Of a stretch of 40,486 nt of DNA, positions 15,856 to 30,409 are shown in pieces. The DNA comes from a virus. Taxonomy: Duplodnaviria > Heunggongvirae > Uroviricota > Caudoviricetes. Under the pieces are notes generated by a model. It worked only from the letters and a program-made list of their open reading frames with translations, was not told where the DNA came from and searched no databases. Location: IMG/VR virus record IMGVR_UViG_2526164661_000012, one strand, 5' to 3'. Position 1 is the first letter of the stretch; every line of letters starts with the position of its first letter. The position numbers were made by a program, and so were the translations under genes.

Positions 15856-15873
15856 TGTGTGGTTGTCGGTACA
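15856..15873. promoter_or_regulatory. Ogr-type activator dyad TGT-N12-ACA in the P-O divergent late promoter region
   Basis: TTTGTGTGGTTGTCGGTACAA about 55 bp upstream of a plausible O transcription start; near-identical to the dyad upstream of FI at 30392..30409. Confidence 0.4.
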
Positions 15874-15951
15874 AATACCGCGCATTGTTTCACTGCCCCC
15901 ATCACCGCAACCATAAGGCTCCAGTAAGTTTTTTCTAACGGAGCACGGCTC

Positions 15952-16785
15952 ATGACAGTGAAAGCAAAGCGTTTTCGCATCGGGGTGGAAGGTGCCACCA
16001 CCGACGGACGCGAAATCCAGCGTGAATGGCTGGAACAGATGGCAGCCAGCTACAACCCGGCGGTGTATACCGCGCTGATTAACCTTGAGCACATCAAGTC
16101 TTATCTGCCGGACAGCACCTTTAACCGTTACGGCAAGGTGACGGCGCTGTTTGCCGAAGAAATCACGGAAGGTCCGCTGGCAGGCAAGATGGCGCTGTAT
16201 GCCGACGTTGAGCCAACGGAATCCCTGGTGGAGCTGGTGAAAAAAGGCCAGAAATTATTCACCTCTATGGAAGTCAGCCCGAAGTTCGCTGATACGGGCA
16301 AAGCTTACCTGGTCGGCCTGGCTGCCACTGATGACCCTGCCAGTCTGGGTACGGAAATGCTGACATTCAGCGCCAGTGCAGCTCATAACCCGCTGACAAA
16401 CCGCAAGCAGAATCCTGCAAATCTCTTTACCGCTGCAGAGGAAACGGTGATCGAACTGGAAGAAATCCAGGATGACAAACCGTCCCTGTTTGCCCGTGTC
16501 ACGGCGTTGTTTACCAAAAAAGAACAGTCCGATGACGCCCGGTTCTCTGATGTGCATAAGGCCGTGGAGCTGGTCGCCACTGAGCAGCAGAACCTGAGCG
16601 CACGCACCGAAAAATCCCTGTCTCAGCAGGAAGAACGTCTGTCTGAGCTGGAGACTGCCCTGCAGGCACAGCAGACCGCCTTTAACGAACTGGTGAATAA
16701 GCTGAGTCATGAAGACAGCCGCCAGGACTACCGCCAGCGTGCAACAGGCGGTAACGCCCCCGCTGACACTCTGACCAATTGCTGA
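15952..16785 (+). CDS. O: Capsid scaffolding protein (gpO-like)
   Basis: 277 aa; position between P and N. Confidence 0.85.
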   Translation: MTVKAKRFRIGVEGATTDGREIQREWLEQMAASYNPAVYTALINLEHIKSYLPDSTFNRYGKVTALFAEEITEGPLAGKMALYADVEPTESLVELVKKGQKLFTSMEVSPKFADTGKAYLVGLAATDDPASLGTEMLTFSASAAHNPLTNRKQNPANLFTAAEETVIELEEIQDDKPSLFARVTALFTKKEQSDDARFSDVHKAVELVATEQQNLSARTEKSLSQQEERLSELETALQAQQTAFNELVNKLSHEDSRQDYRQRATGGNAPADTLTNC

Positions 16786-16801
16786 TGGAGCACAAAACCC
16801 G

Positions 16802-17860
16802 ATGAAGAAGAATACCCGCTTTGCTTTTAACGCTTACCTGCAGCAGCTGGCGCGTCTGAACGGTGTGGCAGTTGAAGAACTGTCCAGCAAATTCACCGTA
16901 GAGCCGTCTGTACAGCAGACGCTGGAAGACCAGATCCAGCAGTCCGCCGCTTTCCTGACGCTGATTAACGTCACGCCAGTGACTGAACAGTCCGGTCAAC
17001 TGCTGGGGCTGGGTGTTGGTAGTACCATTGCCGGAACCACTGATACCACCGCGAAAGAGCGTGAACCCGTCGATCCGACGCTGATGGTCGATGTGGAATA
17101 CAAATGCGAGCAGACCAACTTTGACACGGTGCTGACCTACGCGAAGCTGGATCTGTGGGCGAAGTTTCAGGATTTCCAGGTGCGTATCCGTGACGCCATC
17201 GTGAAACGTCAGGCACTGGACCGCATCATGATCGGCTTTAACGGCGTGAAGCGTGCGAAAACCTCCAACCGTAGCGAAAACCCGCTGCTGCAGGATGTGA
17301 ACAAAGGCTGGCTGCAGAAAATCCGTGAGGATGCACCGGATCACGTCATGGGCAGCACCACCACGGGCGGTGAAACCACACCGGGCGCGGTGAAAGTCGG
17401 GAAAGGTGGCGAATATGCCAACCTGGACGCCGTGGTGATGGATGCCGTCAATGAGCTTATCGACGTGGTCTACCAGGACGATGACGATCTGGTGGTGATT
17501 TGCGGTCGTGAACTGCTGTCTGACAAGTATTTCCCGCTGGTCAACAAAGAGCAGGAAAACAGTGAAAAACTGGCTGCCGATATGATCATCAGTCAGAAAC
17601 GCATGGGTGGCCTGCAGGCCGTGCGTGCGCCGTTCTTCTCGCCGAATGCATTGCTGATCACCCGTCTGGATAACCTGTCCATCTACTGGCAGGAAGATAC
17701 CCGCCGCCGCTCAGTTATCGACAACCCGAAACGTGACCGGATTGAAAACTTTGAATCCGTTAACGAAGCCTATGTGGTTGAGGACTACCGCTGCGCCGCA
17801 CTGGTGGAAAACATCCAGATTGGCGACTTCAGCGCCACCGCAGCAGAAACCGGAGCGTAA
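16802..17860 (+). CDS. N: Major capsid protein (gpN-like)
   Basis: 352 aa; P2 N order and size. Confidence 0.9.
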   Translation: MKKNTRFAFNAYLQQLARLNGVAVEELSSKFTVEPSVQQTLEDQIQQSAAFLTLINVTPVTEQSGQLLGLGVGSTIAGTTDTTAKEREPVDPTLMVDVEYKCEQTNFDTVLTYAKLDLWAKFQDFQVRIRDAIVKRQALDRIMIGFNGVKRAKTSNRSENPLLQDVNKGWLQKIREDAPDHVMGSTTTGGETTPGAVKVGKGGEYANLDAVVMDAVNELIDVVYQDDDDLVVICGRELLSDKYFPLVNKEQENSEKLAADMIISQKRMGGLQAVRAPFFSPNALLITRLDNLSIYWQEDTRRRSVIDNPKRDRIENFESVNEAYVVEDYRCAALVENIQIGDFSATAAETGA

Positions 17861-17863
17861 CCC

Positions 17864-29431: not shown

Positions 29432-29461
29432 GGCCGTTTTTATAATCCGGCCCGGCGTTTT

Positions 29462-29812
29462 TTACAACATTGTCAGTGCGTTAAGGCGGGATGTTTTTGG
29501 CTGACGCCAGTCCAGCTTATCGAGGAGCATTGCCAGTTGCGAGCGGGTAATGGATATCTTACCGTCACGCACCGCAGGCCAGATAAACTGACCTTCCTCA
29601 AGGCGTTTGGTGAACAGGCACAGACCATCAGCATCAGCCCACAGGATTTTAATCGTGTCTCCCCGTCGGCCACGGAAGATAAACAGGTGACCGGAGAAGG
29701 GGTTATCATCCAGCACATGCTGTATCTGCTCCCCCAGACCGTTGAAGGATTTACGCATATCAGTAACGCCGGCAACGAGCCAGATACGGGTACCTGATGG
29801 GAGTGAAATCAT
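29462..29812 (-). CDS. tnpB: IS66 Orf2 (TnpB)
   Basis: 116 aa (MISLPSGTRIWLVAGVTDMRKSFNGL...FIFRGRRGDTIKILWADADGLCLFTKRLE), characteristic IS66 orf2 sequence. Confidence 0.8.
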   Translation of the reverse strand: MISLPSGTRIWLVAGVTDMRKSFNGLGEQIQHVLDDNPFSGHLFIFRGRRGDTIKILWADADGLCLFTKRLEEGQFIWPAVRDGKISITRSQLAMLLDKLDWRQPKTSRLNALTML

Positions 29813-30243
29813 CGTCCCCTCCCGGTCAGCTCACGGATCAACACCGTGAGCAGCTCTGGTGAAGGATTTTCCAGCATCATTTTACCGTAATGGAATTCCA
29901 CATGGCAGGAAGCTGCACAAGCAACTGATAATGCCTCCGGAGCAGGAGCATCTGTAGCACAGCGCGGGGGGTCGATAAGTTCCACTGGAACCAGAGTCGG
30001 AGAGGCCGGAAAAGATTGTGATACTGTAGGGCCTACAATAGTTGGAGGCATTCTACGAGAAATACGTCCTTCTCTTTGCCAGAGGCGTAGCCATTTAAAA
30101 ATCAGGTTGTTATCAACGCCATGTTCCCGGGCCAGTTGTGCAACATTGGCATTTGGTTTCGAAGCCAGTTCAACCATATGAAGTTTAAATTCATTAGAAA
30201 ATATCCGGCGGGTTCCGGAGCGCCAGTCTGTAGGTTTATCCAT
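29809..30243 (-). CDS. tnpA: IS66 Orf1 (TnpA)
   Basis: First gene of the IS66 operon, overlapping tnpB start; ATG at 30243 preferred over track TTG at 30246. Confidence 0.7.
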   Translation of the reverse strand: MDKPTDWRSGTRRIFSNEFKLHMVELASKPNANVAQLAREHGVDNNLIFKWLRLWQREGRISRRMPPTIVGPTVSQSFPASPTLVPVELIDPPRCATDAPAPEALSVACAASCHVEFHYGKMMLENPSPELLTVLIRELTGRGR

Positions 30244-30391
30244 CAATAGAACTCCGTCTAATTTAGAAGGAGCTCTAATTTAGTCTGCAAGGAGCAGGTG
30301 TTACAGACGGCATTGGCTTTACGCTTACAATGAATCCCCCTGAATCAGCATTATTTTGATTATCCCTGAAAGCAGACAAATACCGTCATTT

Positions 30392-30409
30392 TGTGTGAAT
30401 AACGGTACA
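30392..30409. promoter_or_regulatory. Ogr-type activator dyad TGT-N12-ACA upstream of FI (late promoter PF-like)
   Basis: TTTGTGTGAATAACGGTACAA centred about 85 bp upstream of the FI ATG; near-identical in form to the dyad at 15856..15873. Confidence 0.4.

Follow-up and report, generated by a model that had tools for sequence, protein, structure and literature searches.

Candidate Ogr-type activator sites upstream of the late operons of a P2-like prophage

Late promoters of P2 and 186

Bacteriophage P2 has four late promoters with the consensus TGT-N12-ACA, all of them dependent on the activator Ogr (PMC3931495). These promoters (PP, PO, PV and PF), on which the Delta protein of P4 also acts, control the same four operons, in the same order, as those of the prophage described here. 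In the GenBank annotations, from which the mapped P2 and 186 sites and starts were taken, one site is common to the divergent P and O promoters of P2, with starts 55.5 bp to either side, while the pF start lies 57.5 bp from the centre of its site and the V operon starts on the first base of V. The prophage resembles P2 in each of these respects, with a shared P/O site, site centres about 55-58 bp from predicted +1 positions and a predicted V start at the V ATG, as well as in its weak -10 elements, the lack of a -35 element and the location, after gene D, of a gene for a C4 zinc-finger activator of the Ogr family. In phage 186, where the activator is B and the promoters are p12, pV, pJ and the orf32 promoter, the divergent p12 and pV likewise share the B site lying between them and the pJ start lies 57.5 bp from its site centre, a geometry similar to that of the prophage. 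In both annotations, the two starts served by the shared site lie 55.5-56.5 bp from its centre. Activator sites of this kind, already mapped in P2 and 186, are therefore known biology. The mapped sites follow the pattern TGT-N12-CCA (P2 pO/pP and pF) or TGT-N11-ACA (P2 pV), and those of 186 end in CCA, whereas the three sites of the prophage are exact TGT-N12-ACA; the left arm of the 186 site, TTGTGTG, is identical to that of the prophage O and FI sites. Given these inexact mapped sites, the consensus is looser than an initial annotation of this DNA had assumed.

The stretch of DNA analysed (40,486 nucleotides, hereafter the window) contains a P2-like prophage (Peduoviridae, Elveevirus-type) in which the gene order of P2 is complete and the DNA is approximately 96% identical to Peduoviridae phages, including Escherichia phage Cartapus (~96%). 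The late genes would form four activator-dependent operons, with P-Q reading leftward and O-to-S, V-to-H and FI-to-D reading rightward.

Occurrence and conservation of the dyads

The four TGT-N12-ACA dyads reported in the initial annotation are all present as exact matches where it had placed them (Table 1), and the near-identity it described between the extended O and FI copies was also borne out, their common ends being TTTGTGTG and CGGTACAA. Its estimate that the pattern should occur by chance about once per 4 kb is correct, with nine exact matches in the whole window against 9.9 expected analytically and 11.2 +/- 3.1 in shuffled sequences, and there is no overall enrichment of TGT-N12-ACA in the window (9 vs ~10-11 expected). 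The remaining five matches all lie inside coding DNA. One of these, at 5673, was considered as a fifth promoter, as it seemed to lie between genes, with an ORF starting about 58 bp away, and was rejected because it falls within the sequence encoding the N-terminal part of a Dam methylase, a gene frameshifted by the shortening of a poly-A run; with the A6 run of Cartapus, the spacing becomes N13. Frameshifts at poly-A runs near 5684, 21925 and 30815 may be assembly errors.

Table 1. Positions of the dyads, -10-like hexamers and activator gene in the window
Feature	Position	Strand	Details
Dyad overlapping P start	15798-15815		Exact TGT-N12-ACA, TGTGGTGTTCATGGCACA
P/O dyad	core 15856-15873; site 15854..15875; centre 15864.5		Exact match; core TGTGTGGTTGTCGGTACA; extended TTTGTGTGGTTGTCGGTACAAA
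V late promoter dyad	core 22170-22187; site 22168..22189; centre 22178.5		Exact match; core TGTACCATCGATACCACA; extended TTTGTACCATCGATACCACAAT
FI (tail sheath operon) dyad	core 30392-30409; site 30390..30411; centre 30400.5		Exact match; core TGTGTGAATAACGGTACA; extended TTTGTGTGAATAACGGTACAAC
Exact dyad match	5673		In Dam methylase; owed to poly-A run one base short
Exact dyad match	31701		In FII
Exact dyad match	33696		In T
Exact dyad matches	39513 and 40168		In host genes ybjL and ybjM
-10-like hexamer TAGGTT, predicted P promoter	15816..15821	-	Offsets 35-40 from dyad; predicted +1 15809 = A of P ATG
-10-like hexamer AACCAT, predicted O promoter	15909..15914	+	Predicted +1 ~15920-15923
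-10-like hexamer CATCAT, V promoter	22222..22227	+	Predicted +1 22234 = A of V ATG
-10-like hexamer CAACAT, FI promoter	30444..30449	+	Predicted +1 ~30456-30458
ogr homologue	37413..37631	+	72-aa C4 zinc-finger protein, presumed dyad-binding late activator; Pfam Ogr_Delta PF04606, E = 6.8e-22

The initial annotation had argued that the presence of dyads in the late promoter regions was unlikely to be coincidence, and had named a similar dyad density outside promoters as evidence to the contrary. The argument stands for the placement of the dyads and fails for the bare six-base pattern, whose density in non-promoter DNA is at the level of chance; lacking such enrichment, the case is carried by position and conservation. 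A reading of the dyads as chance matches without a regulatory role agrees with the total count and with six of the nine matches being evidently non-functional, but it is extremely improbable in view of where the other matches lie. Each of the three short intergenic regions preceding the late operons (142, ~103 and ~156 bp) holds one exact match; with 2.2e-4 matches observed per position, the probability of this joint placement is about 3e-5. The extended motif TTGT-N12-ACAA, which also counts against chance, occurs three times in 40 kb against 0.79 expected, only at the sites upstream of P/O, V and FI; with one mismatch allowed, its 22 matches are at chance numbers (20.7 expected). When a position weight matrix built from the sites of relatives was scanned across the whole window, with shuffled windows as background, ranks one to three were taken by the FI (24.0 bits), P/O (22.4 bits) and V (13.8 bits) sites, the best match in a shuffled window reaching 10.0 +/- 3.0 bits. 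The V site is only about 1.3 sd above that value and, owing to this modest score, depends on position and conservation when taken alone.

Conservation provides a further argument against chance. Among relatives, 164/164 distinct upstream sequences (O 48/48, V 44/44 and FI 72/72) retain an exact dyad where the promoter is expected, at the same distance in DNA that has otherwise diverged. This presence is the non-circular statistic, since the anchored profiles were chosen on an exact dyad and the invariance of TGT and ACA in them follows by construction. The dyads upstream of V and FI appear as conserved islands amid variable DNA. Many of the relatives are close, those for the O region having 84-99% O protein identity, and conservation of the O site is consequently weaker evidence than that of the V and FI sites. 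A scan for relatives with P2 gpO did not widen the sample, every locus that it retrieved being identical to P2 in O. With the simple pattern, no clear dyad was detected in more distant family members (a phiCTX-like phage, Mannheimia, Smp131, phiO18P, HP2 and a Vibrio phage). The annotated P starts of some of these members are doubtful.

Geometry of the predicted late promoters

A scan for the sigma-70 consensus found no promoter at any of the four late promoter positions, as expected for promoters predicted to be activator-dependent. The only -10-like elements at these positions are xAxxxT hexamers (Table 1), found at a fixed 35-40 nt after the dyad (36-41 for O) and kept in 83-100% of relatives across the promoters, a constancy of spacing that also speaks against a chance origin of the dyads. 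Promoter regions of P2, 186 and the window were compared by ungapped anchoring on the dyad, MAFFT alignments having scrambled the register. In the anchored columns, the -10-like hexamers of the window and the ATGs of P and V coincide with the mapped -10 elements and starts of P2 and 186.

The 142-bp gap between P and O contains a single conserved dyad, whose centre is separated from the start codons of P and O by 55.5 and 87.5 bp, respectively. Toward P, the TAGGTT hexamer occupies the same column (offsets 35-40) as TAGCCT in both P2 and 186, upstream of mapped starts, and xAxxxT is found there in 29/29 distinct relatives. Toward O, the hexamer occurs at offsets 36-41 in 96% of 24 distinct relatives, in agreement with P2 pO and 186 pV (hexamer GAAACT). 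The predicted leader, which runs up to the O ATG (15952), is roughly 30 nt long and includes a GGAG Shine-Dalgarno (SD) sequence, and all 15 distinct O variants carry an SD.

The dyad at 15798, which the initial annotation had described as overlapping the start of P, is indeed an exact match at that place, and its implied reading was that P has a dyad of its own, apart from that of O. The match is also present in Cartapus and is the fourth-best matrix match of the window, yet a P-specific role for it is very unlikely. It overlaps the P start codon (15807-15809) together with P codons 2-4, covering roughly -6 to +12 relative to the predicted start of P, so that P transcripts would start at it or upstream of it, and not some 55 bp downstream of it. 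It is kept in 23/48 distinct relatives, being lost where tgtgcc has become tgggcc, and the 25/48 that lack it all retain the shared dyad. At 9.2 bits, it does not exceed the top match of a shuffled window, and it does not conform to TTGT-N12-ACAA. These features led to its rejection as a member of the system and its classification as a chance match. In P2 and 186, moreover, the two divergent promoters are annotated with one common site. The O dyad of the prophage would likewise work bidirectionally and activate P as well as O.

The centre of the V dyad and the V ATG, which is at 22234, are 55.5 bp apart. The initial annotation considered this copy unusually close to the start codon; it is close, but not unusual, considering that the P2 V operon starts on the first base of V and that the distance is 54.5-57.5 bp in 44/44 distinct relatives. 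The hexamer is kept at offsets 35-40 in 83% of 29 distinct relatives. The V variants invariably have ATG as their start codon, and in 23/27 of them no SD was found. Since +1 would fall on the A of the ATG, a leaderless V mRNA is predicted. The idea that the V dyad acts in both directions and also serves a divergent DUF6216 ORF, with ATGs at 48.5 and 57.5 bp, was considered and discarded, as in relatives the distance to the start of this ORF varies from 1.5 to 160 bp without a favoured value.

The FI dyad is centred 85.5 bp from the FI ATG at 30486, and an exact dyad is found 78.5-85.5 bp from this codon in 72/72 distinct relatives. The hexamer occurs at offsets 35-40 in 56/56 distinct relatives, a CATAG island is conserved in the upstream region, and the predicted leader of about 28-30 nt contains an AGGAGG SD ahead of the ATG.

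The shared site would, in the same manner as the V site, place a +1 on the A of the start codon of the leftward gene P, which encodes the large terminase. The proposal that, in the Elveevirus-type clade, P resembles the baseplate gene V in being expressed as a leaderless mRNA, here from a shared bidirectional Ogr site, has roughly even chances of being correct. In 32/32 variants, exactly 55.5 bp separate the dyad centre from the start codon of P. This codon is preceded by a TAxxxT hexamer that ends 6 nt ahead of it and, just upstream, by an in-frame stop, and no SD is conserved. Dagavirus and, apparently, Burkholderia phage KS5 have the same geometry. In P2, on the other hand, the P ATG is not at +1, as predicted for the prophage, but follows a leader of 23 nt that includes a GAGG SD; the 186 homologue, orf12, also has a 23-nt leader, with 78.5 bp between site centre and ATG where the prophage has 55.5 bp. 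If the proposal is true, the SD-containing 23-nt P leader of P2 and 186 may not be family-wide, and its confirmation would add a second conserved leaderless late gene for the family, the sole point going beyond the textbook account.

The activator and comparison with related phages

The ogr homologue of the prophage is intact, with Cys4, Cys7, Cys30 and Cys35 forming a CX2CX22CX4C arrangement that aligns with P2 Ogr and 186 B. Its overall identity is only 51% with P2 Ogr; with 186 B it is 54%, and with the Ogr of Cartapus 63%. The late operons are very probably driven by activator-dependent promoters in which the three dyads are sites for this protein, a reading indicated by the sequence and placement of the dyads, their conservation, their co-occurrence with ogr and their agreement with the mapped P2 and 186 sites. 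The initial annotation's identification of the dyads as Ogr/Delta-type late promoter sites is upheld for P/O, V and FI by geometry, conservation, the -10-like element, the three top matrix ranks and the presence of ogr, and does not extend to the 15798 copy.

In the proposed mechanism, for which binding by the prophage Ogr, the exact start points and activator dependence are what we infer, the protein would recognise three inverted repeats of about 20 bp, with the general form TTGTryyr-N4-ryyrACAA and the core TGT-N12-ACA, each with its centre about 55-58 bp ahead of a transcription start. The bound activator may recruit or stabilise host sigma-70 RNA polymerase at promoters presumed to consist of a weak -10 (xAxxxT) with no recognisable -35, and the symmetric P-O site would activate both divergent promoters. 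P2 genetics points to activation through contact with the alpha subunit; rpoA109 is suppressed by mutations in ogr (PMC11434276).

The dyads could alternatively be sites for a host regulator with TGT/ACA half-sites, such as CRP, instead of a phage activator, given that CRP sites also hold TGTGA...TCACA and that the O and FI sites begin with TGTGTG. The CRP consensus is TGTGA-N6-TCACA, in which TGT and ACA are 10 bp apart, not 12. This spacing disagrees with that of the dyads, and a TCACA arm is found in none of the three sites. The motif also co-occurs with ogr and follows P2-family late operons across hosts (Klebsiella, E. coli and Salmonella), a variant dyad (N11/N13) being present at the corresponding position in Burkholderia phage KS5. 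A host regulator is, for these reasons, highly improbable, and an Ogr-type phage activator is the preferred reading.

The comparison mainly confirms that the dyads are real but ordinary, with late-gene control in this Klebsiella/E. coli P2-like prophage operating as in P2 and 186. The resemblance to 186 extends to an immunity/lysogeny module of the same type (CI, CII and Tum/DinI). Recognition of the sites may be useful for annotation, for forecasting which prophages the Delta protein of a P4-like satellite could trans-activate, and for the engineering of late-gene expression; the Cartapus record, taken as reference, has no late promoter sites annotated. Cartapus (Elveevirus) and Klebsiella P2-like prophages are the closest relatives compared, with about 96% DNA identity, identical O and FI dyads and equal dyad-to-ATG distances throughout. 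Cartapus differs from the window in its ogr allele, in the absence of the IS66 insertion upstream of FI, and in its V-upstream DNA and V dyad spacer (TGTGTCATTTACCACACA), which are unrelated to those of the window. Although positions 21286-22232 have no detectable homology to Cartapus, the V dyad of that phage is also found 55.5 bp from V.

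Placement of the late-promoter dyads

The window holds the full P2 gene layout, as identified from ORFs and Pfam. Its 14-24 kb stretch shares ~96% identity with P2-like Klebsiella and E. coli phages, for which the annotated reference was Escherichia phage Cartapus (Peduoviridae, Elveevirus). The four TGT-N12-ACA dyads proposed in the initial annotation as Ogr/Delta recognition sites are all present at the positions listed in the table, and the O and FI copies, described there as nearly identical, both carry TTTGTGTG...CGGTACAA.

Coordinates of features in the window and of late-promoter dyads in related phages
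Feature	Coordinates	Strand
Integrase	1-1131	-
CI/CII-type immunity region	2800-4593	mixed
Dam methylase (frameshifted)	5631-6483	
gpA (replication)	7310-9682	+
DinI/Tum	9963-10268	+
cos	about 11419-11476	
Q (portal)	13000-14046	-
P (large terminase)	14043-15809	-
Dyad over P start	15798-15815	
Shared P/O dyad	15856-15873	
O, N, M, L, X, lysis genes, R, S	15952-21383	+
Moron (DUF6216; frameshifted)	21325-22130	-
V dyad	22170-22187	
V, W, J, I, H	22234 onward	+
DNA invertase	27223-27792	+
IS66 element	27789-30328	
IS66 transposase (frameshifted)	27819-29431	-
FI dyad	30392-30409	
FI (frameshifted)	30486-31657	
FI, FII, E, T, U, D	30486-37322	+
ogr	37413-37631	+
Host ybjL and ybjM	37867-40199	mixed
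P2 record (L002), late-promoter sites	3063-3080, 10243-10259, 17561-17578	
186 record (L003), late-promoter sites	3800-3817, 14093-14110	
Klebsiella Dagavirus, Salmonella relative and Burkholderia phage KS5 (L325, L326, L324): dyad in L325	498-515	
Same three phages: dyad in L326	486-504	
Same three phages: dyad in L324	505-522	

The presence of the dyad in each late-promoter region inspected had also been judged unlikely to be coincidental. The bare count gives no support for this, as the exact pattern shows no enrichment in the whole window, with nine matches against 11.2 +/- 3.1 in dinucleotide-preserving shuffles; the count alone is therefore uninformative and placement becomes the test. 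On placement the claim is upheld, since exactly one match falls in each of the three short intergenic regions preceding late operons, a joint probability of about 3e-5 by our arithmetic from the observed per-position rate. The five previously unmentioned matches all lie in coding DNA (Dam, FII, T, ybjL, ybjM). The one at 5673, in Dam, has been dismissed, since it arises only because its poly-A run has one base fewer than the Cartapus run, which gives N13 spacing. The extended pattern TTGT-N12-ACAA occurs three times, compared to 0.79 expected, and all three are the P/O, V and FI sites. A position weight matrix was derived from 87 distinct sites of relatives, leaving out sequences identical to those of the window. 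Scanned over the whole window, a check suggested in the initial annotation, it ranked the three late-promoter sites first (24.0, 22.4 and 13.8 bits), followed by the P-overlapping dyad at the noise-level score of 9.2 bits, the best match in the shuffled window being 10.0 +/- 3.0.

This fourth dyad spans the start codon of P together with codons 2-4, and therefore cannot be upstream of the P promoter. It is found in 23 of 48 distinct relatives, being lost where tgtgcc is replaced by tgggcc, and all relatives lacking it retain the shared P/O dyad. Due to the start-codon overlap, patchy conservation and matrix score, it has been rejected as an activator site and is regarded as a chance match; as in P2 and 186, the O dyad is predicted to serve P as well. 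The occurrence of the dyads is thus confirmed, and their reading as Ogr/Delta sites is right for three of the four (P/O, V and FI).

Conservation and promoter geometry

A set of 240 IMG/VR loci with genes for O, V and FI relatives was compared, and every distinct 160-nt upstream sequence carries the exact dyad at the promoter position: 48/48 for O (dyad centre to ATG 85.5-88.5 bp), 44/44 for V (54.5-57.5 bp) and 72/72 for FI (78.5-85.5 bp). Upstream of V and FI it forms a conserved island, with the consensus TTGTGyCA-N4-TGrCACAA, amid highly variable DNA. The strongest single case of conservation is the V dyad, as window positions 21286-22232 have no BLAST homology to Cartapus and the exact dyad lies 55.5 bp from the V ATG in both. 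This S-V interval consists of an AT-rich moron whose minus strand encodes a DUF6216 protein, and homology to Cartapus restarts 2 nt ahead of the V ATG. A further conserved element, an xAxxxT hexamer, comes after the dyad at a constant offset, namely 35-40 at the P, F and V operon promoters (100%, 100% and 83% of sequences, respectively) and 36-41 at the O promoter (96%). A sigma-70 consensus scan revealed no promoter at any of the four late-promoter positions, as expected if these promoters are activator-dependent.

The P2 RefSeq annotation assigns a single activator site (3057-3087) to both pO (start 3127) and pP (start 3016). It also gives a pV site, for which the V-operon start is 10308, base 1 of the V coding sequence, and a pF site, for which the start is 17626-17628. 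In the 186 record, pV and p12 share a single B site, and the start belonging to the pJ site is 14159. The distance from dyad centre to mapped +1 is 55.5 bp for P2 pP, P2 pO and 186 p12, 56.5 bp for 186 pV, 57 bp for P2 pV, and 57.5 bp for P2 pF and 186 pJ. In the window and Cartapus, the distance from centre to ATG is 55.5 bp for P, 87.5 bp for O, 55.5 bp for V and 85.5 bp for FI. With ungapped anchoring on the dyad, the -10-like hexamers of the window share columns with the P2 and 186 -10 regions, and its P and V ATGs occupy the column of the mapped P2/186 P-promoter start. None of the sites mapped experimentally in P2 and 186 is an exact TGT-N12-ACA (they read TGT-N12-CCA, or TGT-N11-ACA in P2 pV), in contrast to the exact sites of the window and Cartapus (three each) and of all sampled relatives. 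The window sites are cleaner versions of the mapped ones.

The activator gene and neighbouring elements

The ogr gene is intact, with an Ogr_Delta match of E = 6.8e-22 and the CX2CX22CX4C arrangement kept. Its protein is only 63% identical to that of Cartapus, although the neighbouring D region is ~96% identical in DNA and the window and Cartapus have identical O and FI dyads. On this evidence the activator gene looks to have been exchanged by mosaic replacement.

Single-base frameshifts split four genes, encoding the Dam methylase, the DUF6216 moron, tail sheath FI and the IS66 transposase. For the three that were compared with relatives, the cause is a poly-A run lacking one base (A5 vs A6 at ~5684, A7 vs A8 at ~21925, A6 vs A7 at ~30815), a recurrent pattern that suggests homopolymer errors, made in sequencing or assembly, and not true gene decay. 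The IS66-family element (2540 bp) encodes tnpA, tnpB and a split tnpC, each of them on the minus strand, and is bounded by terminal repeats (GTAAGCG) and a target duplication of 8 bp, AATGAATC. The insertion lies at the extreme 3' end of the DNA invertase gene, the right end of the element being 62 bp upstream of the FI dyad, and the FI promoter is intact. The CI-type repressor ORF (2800-3741, minus strand) has 313 aa vs 192 aa for 186 CI, with Pfam matches to two Phage_CI_repr helix-turn-helix stretches and the C-terminal domain; it may represent a repressor with tandem HTHs, or else an ORF that is fused or extended too far. The Dam methylase and gpA genes are separated by an additional 276-aa ORF (6480-7310) that has no match in Pfam, and segment 6404-7385 has no counterpart in Cartapus.

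Predicted leaderless transcripts and probable regulatory mechanism

The V dyad had been considered unusually close to the start codon. This distance is instead the family norm (55.5 bp in 36/44 relatives), because the predicted +1 falls on the A of the V ATG. All V variants start with ATG and 23 of 27 lack any Shine-Dalgarno-like sequence, features consistent with a leaderless mRNA; a GGAG-type Shine-Dalgarno is always present for O and FI. The distance from dyad centre to P ATG is 55.5 bp in 32/32 distinct variants, and that to O drifts. Exactly 6 nt separate the end of TAGGTT, TATGTT or TAGGCT from the P ATG downstream of it, an in-frame stop lies shortly upstream of the ATG, and a weak, non-conserved AGG occurs instead of a Shine-Dalgarno. 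Judging from this spacing, the P transcript in the window's clade appears to be leaderless, with its +1 at the ATG. The 55.5-bp arrangement is also found in the Salmonella relative and the Klebsiella Dagavirus (57% O identity), and Burkholderia phage KS5 has ~55-56 bp to the P ATG, in the order TAGCCT, 6 nt, ATG. Across these three relatives the centre lies 55-56 bp from the P ATG, with TAxxxT ending 6 nt before it. P2, 186 and other Eganvirus phages differ, as their P ATG is 78.5 bp from the centre, which leaves a 23-nt leader containing GAGG.

The established P2-family mechanism is the most likely one. Delta proteins of P4-like satellites would be expected to act at these late-promoter sites as well. 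Ogr would accumulate late in infection and then bind the ~20-bp inverted repeat centred near -55, its contact with RNA polymerase activating promoters that lack a -35, and the divergent P and O operons would both be driven from one symmetric site. In P2 this contact is with the RNA polymerase alpha subunit, according to a passage in PMC11434276 citing ogr suppressors of rpoA109. The P2 consensus has been summarised, and the same logic applied to another P2-like phage, in PMC3931495. The dyads add another example of a well-known regulatory design, and only the predicted leaderless mRNA for the terminase goes beyond the textbook.
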